DNA of 64,000 bases from Anaerolineae bacterium (GCA_040766725.1 JAXGPZ010000001.1:3231086-3295085); one strand, 5' to 3'. Positions 24,475 to 34,774 are shown, numbered from the stretch's first letter. Notes: generated from the letters alone by a model not told the origin. Numbers and translations are program-made.

Positions 24475-25356
24475 TCAGCCCTTGAACGAATAGACGCCGT
24501 TGATCAGCGGCCAGAGCCGCCCGCAAGAGGTGCACCGCGCCCCCTCGGCCACCAGCGCCAGGGGCTGCGCGCCACAGTCTGGGCAGCGAAATAGCCCCGA
24601 GCGTGGCGGCAGCGTCGGCGGCGGCGTGCCGGGCTTGCGGCTGGCCACAAACACGCTGGGGGCCAGATAGGCGCGCGCCAGCAGCCGTTGCTGCGCCGCA
24701 TCGAGGGCGGCCAGCGTGCGCGCCGGCACATGCCGCTTGAGCCAGCCAGAGCGCAACAGTGAGACCGAACGCCGCGCCACCACCGTCAACCCCTGCGCCT
24801 CGAGGTGCTCGCACACCCAGCGAGGATGAAAATCATAGTGCAGGTTGGCGAACTGCAGCGGCTTGGGCGTGAATGGATTGCCGCCGCGGCCCAGCATCCA
24901 GCGCATGATGTTCTTGAGGTGGCGCTTGTTGGCGAACTCGAGCACAAAGGCGCCGTCGGGGGCCAGCACGCGAGCCAGATGCACCAAGGCGGCCGGCACG
25001 TCTTCGAGGTGGTGCAACACGCGCACCATCACCACGGCATCGGCCACGGCATCGGCCAGCGGCAGCCGGTAGATGTCGGCGGCGACATAAACAAAGCGCT
25101 CGGCGCCGAGCTGCTGACGCGCATACTCGAGCTGCGACTGAGAATAGTCCAGCAGCACCACCTCATCATAGCCCTGGTAGAGGCCCGCCAGCCGTCCAAA
25201 CCCAGCGCCCACATCGACGACGCGCCGCCCGCGTGGCGGCAGCATGGCGCCGATGGCAACCCGCTCGGCCAGGTCTTCATACTCGCGGCCCCGGCCCTCC
25301 CAAAAGTCGGTGCGATAGGTGCTGCCTTCATAGTCACAGATGCGCGGCTCGGGCAA
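24475..25356 (-). CDS. Class I SAM-dependent methyltransferase with a C-terminal Trm112-like Zn ribbon
   Basis: VDVGAGFGRL motif I; C-terminal CPDC...CTSC.R.WP...G. TTG start at 25356 preferred (SD GGAGG). Confidence 0.75.
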   Translation of the reverse strand: MPEPRICDYEGSTYRTDFWEGRGREYEDLAERVAIGAMLPPRGRRVVDVGAGFGRLAGLYQGYDEVVLLDYSQSQLEYARQQLGAERFVYVAADIYRLPLADAVADAVVMVRVLHHLEDVPAALVHLARVLAPDGAFVLEFANKRHLKNIMRWMLGRGGNPFTPKPLQFANLHYDFHPRWVCEHLEAQGLTVVARRSVSLLRSGWLKRHVPARTLAALDAAQQRLLARAYLAPSVFVASRKPGTPPPTLPPRSGLFRCPDCGAQPLALVAEGARCTSCGRLWPLINGVYSFKG

Positions 25357-25372
25357 GGGTTCCTCCCGGGAT

Positions 25373-25388
25373 TGTTTCACGTGAAACA
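25373..25388. other. parS: parS centromere-like site
   Basis: Perfect TGTTTCACGTGAAACA (palindrome extends to 20 bp, 25371-25390); intergenic, near dnaN/recF/rsmG. Confidence 0.88.
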
Positions 25389-25468
25389 ATGATTATGTCA
25401 AGTGCTGCATCTCTGGCGCCAGCCGATGATAGCGTCGCCTGAGACTACCGTCAAAGTGCCGCCGGCGG

Positions 25469-25497
25469 TTGACAACGCAAGGCGAGCGTGCTATTGT
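25469..25497 (+). promoter_or_regulatory. Promoter of the aro leader/operon
   Basis: TTGACA-N17-TATTGT with extended TG. Confidence 0.65.
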
Positions 25498-25515
25498 TGC
25501 CTGCAAGGAGATGAA

Positions 25516-25668
25516 ATGCGACGGCTGAACGTAGAGCACCGCCACCATTTCAGCCCCGGCCTTTGGGCCTGGGGCCACCGGCGTGTGCGCCAGCAGCAGT
25601 TCATCTTTGACGGCTACTATTATCCTGTCACGTTCAGGCAACCCTGCGCTGCACGGGACCGACGGTAG
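25516..25668 (+). CDS. Putative attenuation leader peptide (50 aa; WAW, FIF, YYY)
   Basis: SD AAGGAG 5 nt before ATG; [50 protein letters not shown]. Confidence 0.75.
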
Positions 25669-25691
25669 CCAACCAGCAACCAACCGACAGC

Positions 25692-25728
25692 AAGAGCGTG
25701 AGGCGCAGGCCCCACGCTCTTTTTTGTT
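25692..25728 (+). terminator. Attenuator terminator upstream of aroH
   Basis: AAGAGCGTG-A-GGC-gcag-GCC-C-CACGCTCTT followed by TTTTGTT. Confidence 0.8.
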
Positions 25729-25743
25729 CCCAAGGAGGAGATC

Positions 25744-26130
25744 ATGGCCCTACGCGGCATCCGAGGCGCCACCACCGTGGCCGAGAACAGCGCCGACGCG
25801 ATCATCGCCGCCACTGCCGAGCTCTTGCGCGCCCTCGTCGGGGCCAATGGCCTGGCCCCCGAGGACCTGGCCTGCGTCACTTTTACGGTGACGCCCGACC
25901 TGGACGCCGCCTTTCCGGCGCGTGCAGCGCGCGAACTCGGCTGGCAGCAGGTGCCCCTGCTCGACGCTTGCGAGATCCCCGTGCCCGGCAGCCTGCCACG
26001 CTGCATCAGGGCGCTGCTGCTCTGGAACACCCCCACCCCCCAGAACGAGATCGTGCACGTCTACCTGCGCGATGCGCAGGTGCTACGGCCCGACCTCGCC
26101 ACCGGCCCGCACAAGGAGCCACGATCATGA
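25744..26130 (+). CDS. aroH: Chorismate mutase, AroH class
   Basis: [44 protein letters not shown]. Confidence 0.95.
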
Positions 26131-27143
26131 TCATTGTGATGAAGCAGGGTGCAGCGCCTGACCAGTTGCAGGCCGTCATCGGCCGCATCAGCGAGCTCGG
26201 CTTTCGCTCGCATGTGTCGCAGGGCGCCGAGACGACCATCGTCGGCGTCATCGGCGACGAACGCCGCGTGAGTGAGAACGTCTTTCGGATGATGCCCGGC
26301 GTCGACACCGTCGTGCGAGTGCTCAAGCCATACAAGCTTGCCAGCCGCGAGTTCCAGCCCGAGGACACTGTCGTGCCCATCAACGGCATCTGCCTGGGCG
26401 CGCGCAGCGTGGCGATCATCGCCGGGCCGTGCGCTGTCGAGAGCCGCGAGCAGATCATCGAGTCAGCCTGGGCCGTCAAAGAGGCGGGCGGGCGCATCTT
26501 TCGCGCCGGCGCCTTCAAGCCGCGCACCTCACCCTACAGCTTTCAGGGCCTGGGCCTCGAGGGGCTTGCGCTGCTGGCCGAGGTGCGCGAGCTGACCGGC
26601 CTGGCGATCATCACCGAGGTGATGGCCCCCGAGCAGGTGCCCGACGTAGCCGCTGCCGCCGACATCCTGCAGATAGGCACGCGCAACATGCAGAACTATA
26701 ATCTGCTGCATGCCGTGGGCGCCAGCCTCAAACCGGCGCTGCTGAAACGCGGCATGATGTCGACCATGGAAGAGCTGCTGATGTCGGCCGAGTACATCCT
26801 GTCGCACGACAACCCCAACGTCATGCTGTGCGAGCGCGGCATCCGCACCTTTGAGCGCTACACGCGCAACACGCTGGATATCAGCGCCGTGCCGGTGCTC
26901 AAAGAGCTGACCCATCTGCCGGTGCTGATCGACCCCAGCCACGCCTGCGGCAAAGCCGGTTGGGTCAACGCCCTGGCGCGCGCAGCAGTTGCGGCCGGCG
27001 CCGATGGGTTGCTCGTCGAGGCCCACCCACACCCCGAGCTGGCGCTATCCGACGGCCCGCAATCCCTCACGCCCGAGCAGTTGAGCGACCTGGTGCGCGA
27101 TGTGCGTCAGATCGCCGCGGCCGTGGGCCGCGACGTGATCTAG
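26127..27143 (+). CDS. aroF: DAHP synthase type I-beta with N-terminal ferredoxin-like regulatory domain
   Basis: [36 protein letters not shown]; ATGA overlap with aroH. Confidence 0.95.
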
Positions 27144-27152
27144 GCGGGCGCC

Positions 27153-28022
27153 ATGGCATTGCCTCTGCGCGAAGCGCGTGTGGCCATCGTGGGCCTCGGC
27201 CTGATGGGCGGATCACTGGCCGCCGCCCTGAAGGCGGCTCGGGCCTGTCGCGAGGTGATCGGCATTGCGCGCCGGCCCAACAGCATCACGATGGCCCTGA
27301 CCTTTGGGTTCATCGACCGCGGCGCCCTCGACCTGGCCGAGGGGGTGGCCGACGCTGACGTCGTCGTGCTGTGCACGCCGGTGGGCGACATCCTGGACAA
27401 GATCGCCACCATCGGCCCGCTGCTCAAGCCGGGCTGCGTGCTGCTCGACATCGGCAGCACCAAGGCGGCCATCTGTGAGGCGATGGCCGCCATGCCGGCC
27501 CATGTGCAACCGCTGGGCGGGCACCCCATGTGCGGCAAAGAGTCCTCGGGCCTGAACGTGGCCGAGGCGGGCCTCTACCGCGGGCGTGTCTTTGTGCTCA
27601 TCCCCTTGGAGCGCACCTCGCCTGAAGCGCAACGGCTCGCAGGCGAGTTGATCGCCGCCATCGGCGCCCGCGAGCTGCGGCTCGACGCCGCACACCATGA
27701 TCGGGTGGTAGCGTTGATCTCACACCTGCCCTATATGCTCTCAGTGACGCTGGTCAACGCCGCCGCCCGCCTGGCGGGCGATGATGCCACGCCCTGGCGG
27801 CTGGCAGCCAACGGCTTTCGCGACACCAGCCGAGTGGCGGCTGGCGACCTGGCGATGATGATGGACATCATGACCACGAACCGCGCGCCGATTCTGGCGG
27901 CCGTGCGCGGCGCCCAGCAAGAGCTGGACGAGCTCGAAAAACTGCTGGCCACCGGCGACGACGACGCCCTGCAGGCGCATCTGCGCACGGCCCGTCAGCG
28001 CCGTAGAGAGGTGTTCCCATGA
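27153..28022 (+). CDS. tyrA: Prephenate/arogenate dehydrogenase (no ACT domain)
   Basis: GLGLMGGSLA, DIGSTK, GHPMCGKE, HDRVVALISHLP, GFRDTSRVA. Confidence 0.92.
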   Translation: MALPLREARVAIVGLGLMGGSLAAALKAARACREVIGIARRPNSITMALTFGFIDRGALDLAEGVADADVVVLCTPVGDILDKIATIGPLLKPGCVLLDIGSTKAAICEAMAAMPAHVQPLGGHPMCGKESSGLNVAEAGLYRGRVFVLIPLERTSPEAQRLAGELIAAIGARELRLDAAHHDRVVALISHLPYMLSVTLVNAAARLAGDDATPWRLAANGFRDTSRVAAGDLAMMMDIMTTNRAPILAAVRGAQQELDELEKLLATGDDDALQAHLRTARQRRREVFP

Positions 28023-29317
28023 ACCTGACCGTCACACCGCGTGGGCCGTTGCGCGGCGAGGCTCGCGTGCCCGGGGACAAGTCGATCACTCACCGCGCAC
28101 TGCTGCTCGCCGCTCTGGGCGATGGGCCCGCACGGGTGCGCAACCATCTGGATGGCGGCGACTGTCGCGCCACCATCGGCTGCCTGCGGGGCCTGGGGGT
28201 CGCCATCGACGACACTACTCCGGGCGAGCTGCAGGTCGAGGGCGTGGGCCTGCGCGGGCTGGTCGAGCCGGCCGGCGTGCTCGATTGTGTGCGCTCGGGC
28301 ACGGCCATGCGACTGCTGGCCGGCCTCCTGGCGGGCCAGCCTCTGTTCACGGTGCTCTCAGGCGATGATCAACTGCTGCGACGGCCCATGGGCCGCGTGG
28401 TGCAGCCGCTGACGGCCATGGGCGCACACGTCTGGGGCCGCGACGGCAACCGCTATGCACCGCTGGCCATCCAGGGCGCCACACTGCAGGGCGCCACCCA
28501 CCATCTGGCGGTGGCCAGCGCCCAGGTCAAGTCGGCCATTCTGCTGGCCGGTCTCTATGCCCAGGGAGAGACGGCGGTCGTCGAGCCGGGCCCCTCGCGC
28601 GACCACACCGAGCGCATGTTGCGTGGCCGCGGCGTGGCTCTGGCCAGCGAGGGCCTCACGCACCGTGTGCAGGGGCCGGTCGAGGCGCTGGGCAGCCTCG
28701 ACGTCGACGTGCCCGGCGACCTTTCCTCGGCCGCGTTCCTGATCGGCGCAGCACTGCTGACGCCCGGCTCGCGGCTGGTGCTGCGCGATGTCAACCTTAA
28801 CCCCACCCGCACCGGCCTGCTCGACGCCATCGCACTGATGGGCGGTCAAGTCGCGGTGCTCGACGAGCGCGACGCTGCCGGCGAGCCGCTGGGCGACCTG
28901 GCCATCGAGGCGCAACCACTGCACGGGGCCACCATCGGCGGGGCGCTGGTGCCGCGCATGATCGACGAGTTCCCCCTGCTGGCGCTGTTGGCCTCGCAGG
29001 CACAGGGCGTCACCACCGTGACCGATGCCGCCGACCTGCACGTCAAAGAGACCGACCGCATCGTCACCACGGTGGCGGCCCTGCGCGGCCTGGGCGCCCA
29101 CATCGAGCCCACTGCCGACGGCTTTGTGATCGAGGGCCCCACGCCGCTCACGGGCGCGGCCATCGACAGCTTCGGCGACCATCGCCTGGCGATGACGCTG
29201 GCCGTGGCCGGGCTCATCGCGCGCGGCGAAACGGCCATCGGGCGCGCCGAGTGCATGGGCGATTCCTTTCCCGGGTTCGCGCCGCTGCTGCTATCGCTCT
29301 GCGGGGGGGCGGCATGA
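28019..29317 (+). CDS. aroA: EPSP synthase
   Basis: PGDKSITHRA, LLRRPMGRV, SAQVKSA, SRDHTERM, KETDRI, DHRLAM. Confidence 0.96.
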   Translation: MNLTVTPRGPLRGEARVPGDKSITHRALLLAALGDGPARVRNHLDGGDCRATIGCLRGLGVAIDDTTPGELQVEGVGLRGLVEPAGVLDCVRSGTAMRLLAGLLAGQPLFTVLSGDDQLLRRPMGRVVQPLTAMGAHVWGRDGNRYAPLAIQGATLQGATHHLAVASAQVKSAILLAGLYAQGETAVVEPGPSRDHTERMLRGRGVALASEGLTHRVQGPVEALGSLDVDVPGDLSSAAFLIGAALLTPGSRLVLRDVNLNPTRTGLLDAIALMGGQVAVLDERDAAGEPLGDLAIEAQPLHGATIGGALVPRMIDEFPLLALLASQAQGVTTVTDAADLHVKETDRIVTTVAALRGLGAHIEPTADGFVIEGPTPLTGAAIDSFGDHRLAMTLAVAGLIARGETAIGRAECMGDSFPGFAPLLLSLCGGAA

Positions 29318-30198
29318 TGCCCACCCTGGACTATGCCGTGCCCATCGACGGCCACACGCGACTGGTGGGCCTCTTTGGCTGGCCGGTGGAACACAGCGTA
29401 TCGCCGCCCATGCACAACGCCGCTTTTCGAGTGCTGGGCCTGCCCTGGTGCTATGTGCCCTTTGCGGTGCACCCCGACGACCTCGCCGCGGCTCTGGCCG
29501 GCGCGCGCGCCCTGGGGCTGCGTGGCATCAACGCCACCGTGCCTCACAAGCAGGCGCTCTTGCCCCTGATGGACGCACTGACGCCCGCCGCCCGCGCCAT
29601 TCAGGCGGTCAACACGGTGCTGTTCGAGCCGGGCCGCACGCGGGGCCACAACACCGACGCCGAGGGCTTTGCGCGCGCGCTGCGCGACGAGGGACTCGCT
29701 CTGCAGGGCGCCCACGCGCTGGTGCTGGGCGCCGGCGGCGCCGCGCGGGCAGTATGCTACGCCCTGGCAACGGCCGGCGCCCGGGTGACGGTGCTCAACC
29801 GCACGCCCGAGCGCGCCACGTCTCTGGCGGCCACGATCAGCGCCGAGGTGGACGGCGCCCAGCTTTCGGGCGGCCCCCTCAACGCTGACGCCCTGCGCGC
29901 CAGCCCTGCGCCTGACCTGGTGGTGAACGCCACCAATGTGGGCATGTGGCCGCGAGTCGACGCCTCGCCGTGGCCCGACGGCGTGCCCTTTCCGCGGCAA
30001 GCGCTGGCCTATGATCTGATCTACAACCCCCGCGAGACGCGCTGGATGGCGACCGCGCGCGCGGCCGGCGCGCGCGCCGCCAATGGGTTGCGCATGTTGG
30101 TGCACCAGGGCGCGGCTTCGTTTACCGTGTGGACCGGCATCGAGCCGCCCACCGACGTCATGCTCGCCGCCTGCCTGCAGGCGCTGGGAGGAGGCTGA
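29314..30198 (+). CDS. aroE: Shikimate dehydrogenase
   Basis: HSVSPPMHN, NATVPHKQ, AVNT, NTDAEGF, GAGGAAR, DLIYNP. Confidence 0.94.
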   Translation: MMPTLDYAVPIDGHTRLVGLFGWPVEHSVSPPMHNAAFRVLGLPWCYVPFAVHPDDLAAALAGARALGLRGINATVPHKQALLPLMDALTPAARAIQAVNTVLFEPGRTRGHNTDAEGFARALRDEGLALQGAHALVLGAGGAARAVCYALATAGARVTVLNRTPERATSLAATISAEVDGAQLSGGPLNADALRASPAPDLVVNATNVGMWPRVDASPWPDGVPFPRQALAYDLIYNPRETRWMATARAAGARAANGLRMLVHQGAASFTVWTGIEPPTDVMLAACLQALGGG

Positions 30199-30199
30199 T

Positions 30200-31321
30200 A
30201 TGCTGCGATTCATCACTGCGGGCGAGTCTCACGGCCCCGGGCTGGTGGCGCTGCTGGAGGGCATTCCGGCGGGGCTGCCGCTGAGCGCCGACGACCTGCT
30301 GCCGATGCTGGCCCGCCGCCAGCAAGGCTATGGCCGCGGCCAACGCCAGCAGATCGAGCAGGACCATGCCGAGATCATCGCTGGCGTGGTGGATGGCCGC
30401 ACCATCGGCTCGCCGCTGGCGCTGCTGGTGCCCAACCGCGACTATGCCAACTGGCGCGACCGCAAGACGCCGCCCTGGCGTCGCCCCAGGCCGGGCCATG
30501 CCGACCTGGCCGGCGCCATCAAGTACGGCCTCGACGACCTGCGGCTGGTGGCCGAGCGCGCCAGCGCCCGCGAGACGGCCGCGCGCGTCGCGGCGGGGGC
30601 CGTGGCCGTGAGGCTGTTGGCGCAGGTCGGCGTGCAGGTGGGCAGCTATGTGCGCGCCATCGGCCCAGTGCGAGCCGACGTAGAGACGCTGCCGGTGCCC
30701 CAGCGAGTGGAGCGAGCGCGGGCCTCTAACGTGGCCTGCCCCGACGAGGCCGCCGCTGAGCGCATGCGCGCCGCCATCGATGCGGCGCAGGCCGCTGGCG
30801 ATTCGCTGGGCGGCCTGTTCGATGTGGTGGCCTGGGGCTTGCCGGTGGGGCTGGGCAGCTACGTGCAGTGGGATCGACGCCTCGACGCCCGTCTGGCGGC
30901 CGCGGTGATGAGCATTCAGGCGGTCAAGGGCGTCGAGATCGGCCCGGCCTTTGCCAACGCCCGCCTGCCCGGCACCGCCGTGCACGACGCCCTCTATCCG
31001 GGCGACGCCGGCCTGCAGCGCCGCACCAACCGCGCCGGAGGCCTCGAGGGCGGCATGACCAACGGCGAGCCGCTGATCCTCACCGCGGCGATAAAGCCCA
31101 TCCCCACCACGTTGACGCCGCAACCAACCGTCGACCTGGACACCGGTCAGCCGGTGCACACCGAGTACCAGCGCTCTGACGGTTGCGCCGTGCCAGCCGC
31201 GGCCGTCGTGGGCGAGGCGATGGTGGCGTTGACGTTGGCCGAGGCGATCATCGAGCGCTATGGCGGCGACAGCCTGGCCGCACTGCAGCACCGCATGGGG
31301 GGCGCCCATGTCCACCCCTAG
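30200..31321 (+). CDS. aroC: Chorismate synthase
   Basis: TAGESHG, RQQGYGRG, PRPGHAD, ERASARETAARVA, GGLEGGMTNG, KPIPT. Confidence 0.96.
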   Translation: MLRFITAGESHGPGLVALLEGIPAGLPLSADDLLPMLARRQQGYGRGQRQQIEQDHAEIIAGVVDGRTIGSPLALLVPNRDYANWRDRKTPPWRRPRPGHADLAGAIKYGLDDLRLVAERASARETAARVAAGAVAVRLLAQVGVQVGSYVRAIGPVRADVETLPVPQRVERARASNVACPDEAAAERMRAAIDAAQAAGDSLGGLFDVVAWGLPVGLGSYVQWDRRLDARLAAAVMSIQAVKGVEIGPAFANARLPGTAVHDALYPGDAGLQRRTNRAGGLEGGMTNGEPLILTAAIKPIPTTLTPQPTVDLDTGQPVHTEYQRSDGCAVPAAAVVGEAMVALTLAEAIIERYGGDSLAALQHRMGGAHVHP

Positions 31322-32873
31322 TCTGGTGCTCACGGGCTTTATGGGCACTGGCAAGAGCACGGTGGGCCAGGCCGTCGCTGACCGGCTGGGCTTGCGCTTT
31401 GTCGACATGGATCAGGTCATCGCCCAGCGCATGGGCAAGACGATCCCCGAGATCTTTGAGCAGTTCGGCGAGGCCGCCTTTCGGGCGCTCGAGCGCGCCC
31501 TGTGCCTCGAGCTGGCCCAGCAGCAGGGCCTGGTCATCGCCACGGGCGGTGGCGCCCTGGTGGACGAGCGCAACCGCGAGGCGTTGGCCAGAGCGGGCCT
31601 GCTGATCTGCCTGGACTGCGCCCCCGAGGAGATCGTGCAGCGCATCGGCGCCGACGCCAACCGGCCCATGTTGCGCGGTGATGCGCCCGAGCGCCGCATC
31701 GAGGCGCTGCTGCAGGCGCGCCAGGAGGCGTACCGACACATCGCCTATCACATCGACACGACCCGCCTCACGCCCGAGCAGGTGCTCGACGCGGTGCTCG
31801 CGCTCTACCGGGCCGAACCCGAGCCGCTGGAGGTGCGCACACCCGACGGCAGCTATCGCGTGCACATCTACCCGCACGGCGCCGCCCACCTCGGCCCTTT
31901 GATCCAGCACGAGCTGGCGCCGAGCAGCGTCGTCGTGATCGCTGACGAGACCGCCTGGCGCCTGCACGGCGAGCGCGTGGCCGCCGGGCTCGAGGGCAGC
32001 GTGCGCTGGAGCCTGCTGACCGTGCCCTCGGGCGAGGAGCACAAGCGCCTCGAGACGGTGCGCGAGCTCTATGACGGCCTGTTGGCGGCCGGGCTCGATC
32101 GCCAGGGGCTCATCGTGGCGCTGGGCGGCGGCGTGACCACCGACATGGCCGGCTTTGCCGCGGCCACCTACCTGCGCGGCGTGCGCCTGGCGCAGGCGCC
32201 CACCACGCTGCTTGCGATGGTGGATGCCAGCGTGGGCGGCAAGGTGGCCGTGGATCTGCCGCAGGGCAAGAACCTGGTGGGCGCCTTTAAGCAGGCCGAG
32301 CTGGTGCTGCTCGACCCCGAGTTCCTGGGCACGCTGCCGCGCCAGGCGTTGCTCTCGGGGCTGGCCGAGATCATCAAGCATGGGGTCATCGGCGATGTCG
32401 AGCTCTTCGCGCGGCTGGCGCCGGGCGGCGAGTGGCCCGCCATGCGCTGGCTGCTCAAGCGTGCGCTGCAGGTCAAGATCGATATCGTGCAGCAAGACCC
32501 CTTTGAGCAGGGCCTGCGCGCCGTGCTCAACCTGGGCCACACCTTTGCCCATGCCTTTGAGGTGCTGGCCGACTATGCCCTGCCTCACGGCCTGGCCGTC
32601 GGCCAGGGCCTGGCGGCGGCGGCCGACCTCTCGGCGCGTATGGAGCTGTGCAGCGCGGCCACACGCGACCGCATCATCGCGGCGCTGGCGGCCAACGGCC
32701 TGCCCACCCGTCACGGCTGCGACGCTGATGCGGCCATGGCGGCCATGCAGCGCGACAAGAAACGGGTCGCCGACCGGCTCCGTTTCGTGCTGATTCAGGA
32801 TGTGGGGCGTGTCATGGTGCGCGACGACGTGCCCGTAGCGCTCTTGCGCCAAACTCTGGAGGCCTGCCGATGA
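31308..32873 (+). CDS. aroKB: Bifunctional shikimate kinase / 3-dehydroquinate synthase
   Basis: GFMGTGKST (AroK); [36 protein letters not shown] (AroB). Confidence 0.94.
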
Positions 32874-33310
32874 AACTGCTGCTGCTCAACGGCCCCAACC
32901 TGAACCTGCTGGGCACGCGCGAGCCTGACGTCTATGGGCGCGACACGCTGCAAGAGATCGTGGCGCGCGCCACCGCTCACGCCGAGCGGCTGGGCGTCGA
33001 GCTGTACTGCTGGCAATCGAATCACGAGGGGGCGCTGATCGATGCCCTACACGAGGCGCGCGGCTGGGCCGAGGGCATCATCATCAACCCGGGCGCTCTG
33101 ACCCACTACTCGTATGCCCTGCGCGACGCCCTGGCGAGCGTCGCCCTGCCCGCCATCGAGGTGCACCTGTCCAACATCCACGCCCGTGAAGAGTTTCGGC
33201 ACACGTCGGTGACGGCGCCGGTCTGCCGCGGGCAAATCGTGGGGCTGGGCTGGCGAGGCTATCTGCTGGCCATCGAGTGGTTCGCGGCCGGGGGCGCCAC
33301 GGCGGGTTGA
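32870..33310 (+). CDS. aroQ: Type II 3-dehydroquinate dehydratase
   Basis: [37 protein letters not shown]. Confidence 0.96.
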
Positions 33311-33315
33311 GAGGG

Positions 33316-33346
33316 AAAAAGCGGGCCCGGTAGTTCGGGCCCGCTT
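33316..33346 (-). terminator. Terminator between convergent aroQ and ftsZ
   Basis: AAGCGGGCCCG-gtagtt-CGGGCCCGCTT, with a U-tract on the minus strand. Confidence 0.75.
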
Positions 33347-33352
33347 GGCGTC

Positions 33353-34637: not shown

Positions 34638-34645
34638 TGCTGCAG

Positions 34646-34734
34646 ATGCTGGGGGAGCTCCATGCGGGCTGAGAGGATGGCGGCAGCCATCGACCCCTTC
34701 ACCTGAACTGGGTAATGCCAGCGTAGGGAAGCGT
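34646..34734 (+). promoter_or_regulatory. TPP riboswitch (THI box)
   Basis: GGGG...GGCTGAGAGG...GACCC..ACCTGAACTGGGTAATGCCAGCGTAGGGAA; P1 ATGCT/AGCGT. Confidence 0.95.
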
Positions 34735-34741
34735 GATGCGC

Positions 34742-34774
34742 ACAGACCGCTGGCATGGCGGTCTGTTTGTTTTT
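34742..34774 (+). terminator. Riboswitch expression-platform terminator
   Basis: ACAGACCGC-tggcatg-GCGGTCTGT followed by TTGTTTTT. Confidence 0.75.

Follow-up and report, generated by a model that had tools for sequence, protein, structure and literature searches.

The 64,000-nucleotide stretch of DNA analysed here, referred to as the window, comes from an Anaerolineae bacterium (GCA_040766725.1 JAXGPZ010000001.1:3231086-3295085) and carries a short leader between a promoter-like site and the start of aroH, the first gene of an eight-gene aromatic amino acid operon. This leader is very likely a ribosome-mediated transcription attenuator that senses Tyr and/or Phe. Sequence comparison supports a role for the leader in gating aroH-aroF-tyrA-aroA-aroE-aroC-aroKB-aroQ, with clusters of Phe and Tyr codons as the conserved sensing element. 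The evidence in hand comprises the anatomy of the leader, its conservation, the covariation of its antiterminator and the presence of leader-sized RNA in metatranscriptomes. A leader-peptide attenuator in front of the whole common-pathway operon had been proposed in the original prediction, which was made from the sequence of the window, and this proposal is upheld by the anatomy, by a family of 39 loci in relatives and by a covarying antiterminator.

A Phe/Tyr leader family in Anaerolineae

All features of the leader and the operon lie on the plus strand. The leader open reading frame (ORF) comprises 50 codons and a TAG stop codon (25516-25668; ATG at 25516, TAG at 25666-25668) and is preceded, at a distance of 4 nucleotides (nt), by the Shine-Dalgarno (SD) sequence AAGGAG (25506-25511); both the SD and the ATG are kept in the nearest relative of this Chloroflexota window, a locus (L001) with an AroH protein of 85% identity. 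The regulatory codon cluster F29-I-F31-D-G-Y34-Y35-Y36 (25600-25623) contains the Phe codons TTC and TTT (25600-25602 and 25606-25608) and the Tyr codons TAC-TAT-TAT (25615-25623). Codons 2-28 form a variable N-terminal spacer (25519-25599) that holds an HRHH stretch and the pair W17-A-W19, encoded by TGG at 25564-25566 and 25570-25572. The promoter, the SD, the 50-codon ORF with its Trp, Phe and Tyr codons, the U-tailed hairpin and aroH had all been located correctly in the original prediction. The sequence FIFDGYYY is the sole 8-codon window with at least five Phe or Tyr codons in the 64 kb read in six frames (one of 127,996 positions), and it exceeds dinucleotide shuffles of its own region (p = 0.006).

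Relatives were collected by an AroH protein scan of one-genome-per-species contigs and metagenome contigs, which gave 155 loci. The leader family found among them consists of 44 loci, 39 of them non-redundant and almost all from Anaerolineae. Every locus in the family has a terminator 14-136 nt from aroH and a short ORF rich in Phe and Tyr approximately 80-122 nt upstream of the terminator. The short ORFs are 20-61 codons long in all 39 loci, and about half of them have an SD match. The best 8-codon window holds at least five aromatic codons in 35 of the 39 loci and beats shuffles at p <= 0.01 in 31. Within the family, the end of the cluster lies 15-57 nt before the stop codon, which in turn lies 18-44 nt before the terminator. 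Clusters such as FSGYYYYYYY, AFYYFYF, FAFYYYFYF and YYWWFYYF illustrate the range in relatives, where 3-12 aromatic residues are found per cluster, against five regulatory codons in the window. Across the family the cluster codons comprise 102 Phe, 145 Tyr and 8 Trp (of 255), and the cluster is conserved as U[UA]Y codons in one frame, with Phe and Tyr interchanging, rather than as a nucleotide sequence. The original prediction had suggested comparing relatives for conserved Trp, Phe and Tyr codons and covarying helices; conserved Phe and Tyr codons and covarying helices were found, and the Trp pair is absent from L001. Outside the cluster the peptide is not conserved.

The leader is present in 17 of the 18 loci whose label is Anaerolineae or one of its orders or families, as well as in L001 and L007, and is absent from the Limnocylindria, Dehalococcoidia, cyanobacterial and spirochaete loci among those fetched. 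When the window is compared with L001 and a second close locus, L077, the segment from the F29 codon to the aroH ATG is nearly invariant. Codons 2-28 show approximately 50% identity to L001 with no insertion or deletion, so that their length is kept, while the flanks (promoter, SD, ATG and everything from F29 on) are nearly invariant. The -35 box is unchanged in L001 and L077, and the -10 box is the same in the window and L001. In a DNA sequencing run, X7, no strain difference was seen from the -35 box up to the aroH ATG (25469-25743); a strain variant in this run differs at 25404, 25408, 25409 and 25869.

Two side observations concern the codons and the start of the leader. Codons ending in U are more common in the clusters than in the first gene, with TTT:TTC of 72:30 against 66:89 (Fisher p = 1e-5) and TAT:TAC of 74:71 against 51:99 (Fisher p = 0.003), as counted over the 39 loci, which are not phylogenetically independent. 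The SD and start region of the leader, AGATGAAATGC (25507-25519), is complementary over 11 nt (91%) to GCAGTTCATCT around the Phe codons (25596-25606), a pairing that could mask the leader ribosome-binding site when the RNA is not being translated. In L001 there is only a purine:pyrimidine match, which is weaker.

Terminator, antiterminator and the modelled effect of a stalled ribosome

The terminator hairpin in the window (25692-25721; core GAGCGTG.GGC/GCC.CACGCTC) has a folding energy of -17.8 kcal/mol, or -19.7 kcal/mol with an A:U extension, and is followed by T6 at 25720-25725, with aroH 18 nt downstream. It is not listed by a simple terminator scan because its stem is bulged, and folding was used instead. 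In the terms used for classical attenuators, region 3 is the 5' arm and loop of the terminator (25692-25708), of which 25696-25708 can pair alternatively with region 2, and region 4 (25709-25725) is the 3' arm (25709-25719/21) together with T6. Region 2, the 5' strand of the antiterminator (CCTGCGCTGCACGG, 25643-25656), is invariant in L001 and L077 and is located +20 to +33 after the cluster, in line with the family. The antiterminator of the window thus joins 25643-25656 to 25696-25708; a separate repeat search gives 25643-25655 with 25697-25709. The original prediction had noticed that CCTGCGC can pair with the terminator loop, and this pairing exists as part of the family-wide covarying antiterminator at 25643-25656. 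Folding also gives a region 1:2 anti-antiterminator hairpin (25612-25670; -24.4 kcal/mol), in which the 5' strand (25612-25638) consists of the Tyr codons and the next 15 nt and the 3' strand consists of region 2 and the stop codon. The leader stop codon is located 3' of region 2.

Between the leader stop and the terminator lies a C/A-rich, G-poor spacer (CCAACCAGCAACCAACCGACAGC, 25669-25691) that is nearly invariant among the window, L001 and L077, and spacers of similar composition are found in other lineages (L004-L007, L053 and L079). The spacer would belong to the loop of the antiterminated RNA; it may be kept unstructured, or it may be a site for binding or a rut-like site.

Covariation across the family points to the region 2:3 pairing as the antiterminator. 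In almost all loci, the terminator 5' arm and loop have their best partner within the leader ORF, +12 to +35 nt after the cluster. With one representative taken per sequence cluster (20 clusters), the midpoint of the partner falls at +18 to +30 in 16 of 20 representatives, compared with 23% in shuffles (binomial p = 1e-7). Pairing is stronger between cognate segments than between non-cognate ones, with a median fractional rank of 0.065 (p = 6e-6) over all loci and 0.175 (p = 0.007) over the 20 representatives. When the two segments are aligned with MAFFT, 75.5% of the cells are paired in register, against 33-55% when the segments are slid. The antiterminator has 19 doubly changed cells, a number reached by none of 500 shuffles, although this pair count is biased upward, complementarity having been the criterion for picking region 2, a bias from which the position and cognate tests are free. 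For the window, L001 and L077 the formal pair count is too low, because in the MAFFT alignment their region 2 is shifted by two columns relative to the rest. Across the family the terminator is 92.9% paired, with 22 compensatory cells. The loop-proximal arm differs by lineage and its partner changes with it, as in GCAGCC/GGCTGC, GCATC/GATGC, GGAGGCC/GGTCTCC, GCAACC/GGTTGC, GGGATTCC/GAATC-GTCAC and GGCGAC/GTCGC. A convincing antiterminator was not found in L039 (Bipolaricaulia), L021, L026, L096 or L121, despite their clusters and terminators.

The effect of a ribosome was modelled by folding only the RNA 3' of the stalled ribosome, before the 3' arm of the terminator is made. In a first ribosome-walk, any pairing of the 5' arm was scored; this gave spurious long-range pairings and was replaced by scoring specific to region 2:3. 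In the absence of a ribosome, region 2 of the window is buried in the 25612-25670 hairpin. When the A site is placed on Y35 or Y36, the fold obtained is the conserved antiterminator (25643-25656 with 25696-25709), at -23.5 kcal/mol. With the A site on F29, F31 or Y34, the structure of minimum free energy (MFE) instead contains a pairing of TCACGTTC (25628-25635) with GAGCGTGA (25694-25701), at -27.6 kcal/mol. This is the pairing that had originally been put forward as the antiterminator: it forms in the window, is weakened in L001 and is absent in L077. It was therefore rejected as the family antiterminator for want of conservation and retained as a window-specific alternative only. Both pairings would block the terminator in the folding model, and only the region 2:3 pairing is conserved. 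A ribosome halted at F29 or F31 leaves region 1 largely exposed, and the Tyr run would therefore be kinetically better placed than these two codons. In L004, L005, L024, L038, L042 and L077, a ribosome almost anywhere in the cluster makes the region 2:3 antiterminator the MFE structure. In a masked partition-function scan, the family median of the antiterminator probability is 0.01 when no ribosome is present, 0.88 for the most favourable position in the cluster and 0.00 with the ribosome at the stop.

Proposed mechanism and rival explanations

In the proposed mechanism, transcription would begin at about 25504 and the leader would be translated from the ATG at 25516. When Phe and Tyr are plentiful, the ribosome would pass the F29-Y36 cluster and reach the TAG at 25666. 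Region 2 would either lie beneath the terminating ribosome or return to its pairing with region 1 in the 25612-25670 hairpin; because a ribosome on the stop codon overlaps region 2, it would favour termination. The terminator (25692-25721 and T6) would then form, and a leader RNA of approximately 225 nt would be released. When Tyr, and probably also Phe, is scarce, the ribosome would stall in the cluster with its footprint over region 1, and region 2 would be free to pair with 25696-25708 once this is transcribed. The terminator would be blocked and RNA polymerase would continue into the operon. The signal sensed would be charged tRNA-Phe and tRNA-Tyr.

RNA from environmental samples is consistent with such a leader. 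The source organism occurs in anaerobic-digester and sludge metagenomes, and leader-only contigs were found in four independent RNA runs (X25, 25529-25730; X31, 25525-25688; X33, 25513-25688; X34, 25522-25685), none of the RNA-run contigs extending upstream of 25513. In three of these four runs there was no aroH signal over a 1-kb stretch; operon RNA was seen in X25, X26 and X27. Contigs from DNA runs span 25250-26250 unbroken, so the boundaries of the leader contigs are not assembly artefacts of the sequence. The leader contigs fit a promoter with a start at about 25504 and a terminated leader RNA.

Several points weigh against attenuation by Phe and Tyr codons as set out above. Translation of the leader, stalling of the ribosome and the response to starvation are inferred steps. 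Only about 1-2 nt separate the leader SD from the predicted transcription start, and 4 nt separate it from the ATG. On the RNA side, the data are contigs assembled at low depth rather than ends of reads, and X26 and X27 have operon RNA without a leader contig. The window itself is ambiguous in the masked scan, with a low antiterminator probability when the ribosome is on Y34-Y36, because upstream GC-rich segments compete through pairings with upstream RNA. Equilibrium folding with the full terminator gives the terminator at any ribosome position; the model therefore depends on kinetics, as do classical attenuators. No shared region 1 upstream of region 2 reaches significance across the family (mean z = -0.19), and the sequestering partner of region 2 varies between lineages and does not differ significantly from shuffles. 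Finally, the aroR leader of Corynebacterium glutamicum, discussed below, is reported to have responded to limitation of Phe but not of Tyr, so that dual sensing of Phe and Tyr should not be assumed here (PMC11802643, PMC4046766).

In the original prediction, the leader was read as a tri-aromatic OR gate in which a stall at W17/W19, F29/F31 or Y34-Y36 would each relieve termination. The three codon groups are indeed present in order, and sensing of Trp would be physiologically sensible, as the common pathway feeds Trp too. L077 also has two Trp codons, in the sequence A-W-R-L-W located 5-8 codons before its cluster, one of which is aligned with W19, and Trp occurs inside the clusters of L005, L083/L089 and L042. 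Yet W17-A-W19 belongs to codons 2-28, the only part of the leader free of constraint, and is missing from L001, which has no Trp in this segment, and Trp accounts for only 8 of the 255 family cluster codons, as given above. At 66.8% GC, a W-x-W is expected about 0.026 times per 26 codons and any pair of Trp codons within three residues about 0.08 times, and the W-x-W of the leader is within chance for GC-rich DNA. The Trp pair is also too far 5' to release the antiterminator by a stall: a ribosome on W17/W19 would cover approximately 25549-25584 and leave the 25612-25670 hairpin intact, for which the standard geometry predicts termination, and termination is accordingly what the model would expect of Trp starvation, if it had any effect. 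The prediction had supplied a helper pairing of CTGAACGT (25525-25532) with ACGTTCAG (25630-25637); the complementarity is present, but CTGAACGT is not conserved. As functional parts, HRHH and CTGAACGT were rejected because neither is conserved, and the Trp and His codons of the N-terminal spacer (codons 2-28) are in all likelihood incidental. Sensing of Trp through a three-way gate in the window is very unlikely on this evidence. It is unlikely, if somewhat less so, that the Anaerolineae family includes true three-amino-acid sensors and that the Trp pair shared by the window and L077, which is located in a long N-terminal extension, serves as an upstream checkpoint; such a checkpoint could act through ribosome spacing or through pairing across the ribosome, for example 25525-25532 with 25630-25637. 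If three-amino-acid sensing were true, signals from all three aromatic end products would converge on a single leader in front of an operon for the whole pathway. The best candidates for it, to judge from their clusters, would be not the window but L083 and L089 (YYWWFYYF), L005 (YYYWFYFF), L042 (WFYFYYF), L096 and L039 (YYYYFYAW and FFWHYF), in which Trp was observed inside the aromatic cluster.

The switch might alternatively be run by a trans-acting factor (an RNA-binding protein, a tRNA or a small molecule), with the ORF incidental or serving to couple transcription and translation. The HutP-family gene directly before the orthologous operons of Bacillota, the conserved C/A-rich spacer at 25669-25691 and the variability of region 1 would suit such a factor. 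It is nevertheless highly improbable, as Rfam gives no match to a T-box, riboswitch or known leader even at E <= 10, the genes linked to the operon in the window (a methyltransferase gene, dnaN, recF and ftsZ) include no regulator, and the 5' half of the element is conserved as codons in one frame, within an ORF whose start and stop are fixed relative to the switch. A further alternative dispenses with conditional control altogether: the leader would be a stand-alone gene for a small RNA or small protein with its own terminator, and aroH would be expressed by leaky read-through or from another promoter. The leader-only RNA contigs of several runs and the aroH RNA found without a leader contig in some runs can be read in this way, but there is no promoter-like site in the 18 nt between the terminator and aroH, a covarying pairing that competes with the terminator would be purposeless in a plain terminator, and the lack of conservation of the peptide outside the Phe/Tyr cluster argues against a small protein. 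This possibility is therefore extremely remote. Ribosome-mediated attenuation through the Phe and Tyr codons is the preferred explanation.

Operon context and relation to known attenuators

The promoter-like site (25469-25497) is sigma-70-like, with a -35 box TTGACA (25469-25474), a 17-nt spacer and a TG-extended -10 box TATTGT (25492-25497), from which a transcription start at about 25504 is predicted; three sites of this type were found in the 2.5 kb scanned, where 0.2 are expected. Downstream of the terminator, the aroH SD AAGGAGGAG (25733-25741) precedes the aroH ATG at 25744. According to Pfam, the operon encodes an AroH-type chorismate mutase (aroH, 25744-26130), a DAHP synthase with a ferredoxin-like domain (26127-27143), prephenate dehydrogenase (tyrA, 27153-28022), EPSP synthase (aroA, 28019-29317), shikimate dehydrogenase (aroE, 29314-30198), chorismate synthase (aroC, 30200-31321), an aroK-aroB fusion of shikimate kinase and dehydroquinate synthase (31308-32873) and type II dehydroquinase (aroQ, 32870-33310). 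The eight genes thus supply all seven shikimate steps together with chorismate mutase and prephenate dehydrogenase. Neighbouring genes either overlap at ATGA or are separated by 1-9 nt, and the unit ends at a hairpin (33317-33347) that is faced by a convergent ftsZ. As the genes abut or overlap and the unit ends at a hairpin, it is fair in terms of gene layout to say that the leader controls the whole shikimate operon. Within the operon, no terminator was detected on the plus strand, and there is one weak promoter-like match at 26674-26702. The genes upstream of the leader (a methyltransferase gene, dnaN and recF) are on the minus strand, divergent from the aro operon, so the leader terminator does not belong to an upstream gene.

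In the window aroH is unfused and the operon is without prephenate dehydratase. In many family members the first gene encodes a fusion of an AroH-type chorismate mutase, prephenate dehydratase (PDT) and an ACT domain (L005:4001-5314; also L004, L006, L007, L014, L024, L042 and L053), a predicted analogue of the P-protein built on the AroH fold. The Phe/Tyr branch therefore sits with the common pathway, because the operon has chorismate mutase and prephenate dehydrogenase and relatives have AroH-PDT-ACT. Other lineages arrange the same genes differently. In Limnocylindria (e.g. L013, L016, L020 and L025), aroH-aroF-tyrA is appended to the trp operon after trpA with an overlapping TGATG and no leader. 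In Bacillota loci L011, L015, L017, L023, L040, L045 and L066, the gene directly before aroH encodes an RNA-binding protein of the HutP family (PF09021; E = 3e-50 for L017), which suggests protein-mediated antitermination of the same operon there.

The leader can be compared with several known systems. In E. coli, the pheL-pheA and trpL-trpEDCBA leaders each sense a single amino acid and control a branch pathway. They share with the window a codon run, a 1:2 hairpin, a 2:3 antiterminator and a 3:4 terminator with a U tract, and pheA is analogous to the first gene of relatives, the chorismate mutase-prephenate dehydratase fusion. The window differs from them in having its stop codon 3' of region 2 and in a sequestering strand that changes from lineage to lineage. 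In the aro/trp supraoperon of B. subtilis, controlled by TRAP, and in Firmicutes T-box systems, the sensor is a protein or an uncharged tRNA and not a translating ribosome; these systems resemble the leader in conditional termination within a 5' leader and in clustered aromatic genes including an AroH-type chorismate mutase. Leaders that sense Tyr are, to our knowledge, rare.

The closest parallel is aroR of C. glutamicum, in which a Phe-Tyr-Phe leader is reported to attenuate the operon of aroF (DAHP synthase) and to respond to limitation of Phe and not of Tyr (Neshat et al. 2014, as summarised in PMC11802643 and PMC4046766). On that description, aroR and the window are alike in being ribosome-mediated, in mixing Phe and Tyr codons and in controlling the entry enzyme of the common pathway. 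They differ in phylum, in the absence of any detected sequence relationship and in the number of regulatory codons (three against five), and the unit controlled in the window is the eight-gene operon described above. Whereas aroR as described responds to Phe, the Anaerolineae family is predominantly of Tyr codons (145 Tyr to 102 Phe). In Acholeplasma and unassigned environmental sequences, uORFC-13-1 is a candidate attenuator based on an upstream ORF (uORF) next to an intrinsic terminator, is found only upstream of a DAHP-synthase gene (aroF in Acholeplasma) and was proposed, by computational prediction, to sense the incorporation of Phe (Brewer et al. 2021, PMC8632094). It shares with the Anaerolineae leader a uORF and an intrinsic terminator upstream of a DAHP-synthase gene, and differs in relying on Phe only and in its RNA structure; no relation between the two was detected. 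The view that common-pathway genes are managed without aromatic leaders, on which the original prediction drew, is contradicted by these two precedents. Since aroR is already a mixed Phe/Tyr leader on a DAHP-synthase gene, no principle is overturned by the present leader.

An Rfam cmscan of 24500-27000 at E <= 10 returned only a chance microRNA match, with no Phe_leader, Trp_leader or T-box. Checks of broad attenuator surveys (PMC2965389, PMC1262725, PMC4833913, PMC9413887) turned up no aro leaders in Chloroflexi, and no earlier description of aromatic leader attenuation in Chloroflexi or Anaerolineae was found in Rfam or the searchable literature. The present family would extend classical ribosome-mediated attenuation to Chloroflexota, class Anaerolineae, with one leader gating the complete shikimate pathway and the Phe/Tyr branch enzymes and with Tyr codons dominant. 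As a well-populated covarying family it is suited to a curated RNA or leader model, and it offers a practical annotation rule for the aro operons of abundant anaerobic-digester bacteria. It also allows a contrast across lineages: Limnocylindria have the operon joined to the trp operon, and in Bacillota it comes after a HutP-family gene.

Two further features of the window were observed. The region that separates the aro promoter from the divergent methyltransferase gene holds a perfect 20-bp palindrome (25371-25390; ATTGTTTCAC followed by GTGAAACAAT), approximately 80 nt upstream of the -35 box. It has a single copy in the window and, among the 155 loci, is found only in L001 and L076; it looks like a candidate operator for some transcription factor. 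An Rfam scan of the whole window at the gathering threshold returned only a tRNA and a thiamine pyrophosphate (TPP) riboswitch (34641-34746, plus strand; 67 bits), the latter located before genes for thiamin pyrophosphokinase, an NMT1/THI5-like protein and an ABC transporter. The listed ATG of the thiamin pyrophosphokinase ORF (34600) overlaps the TPP aptamer, and the real start is probably later.

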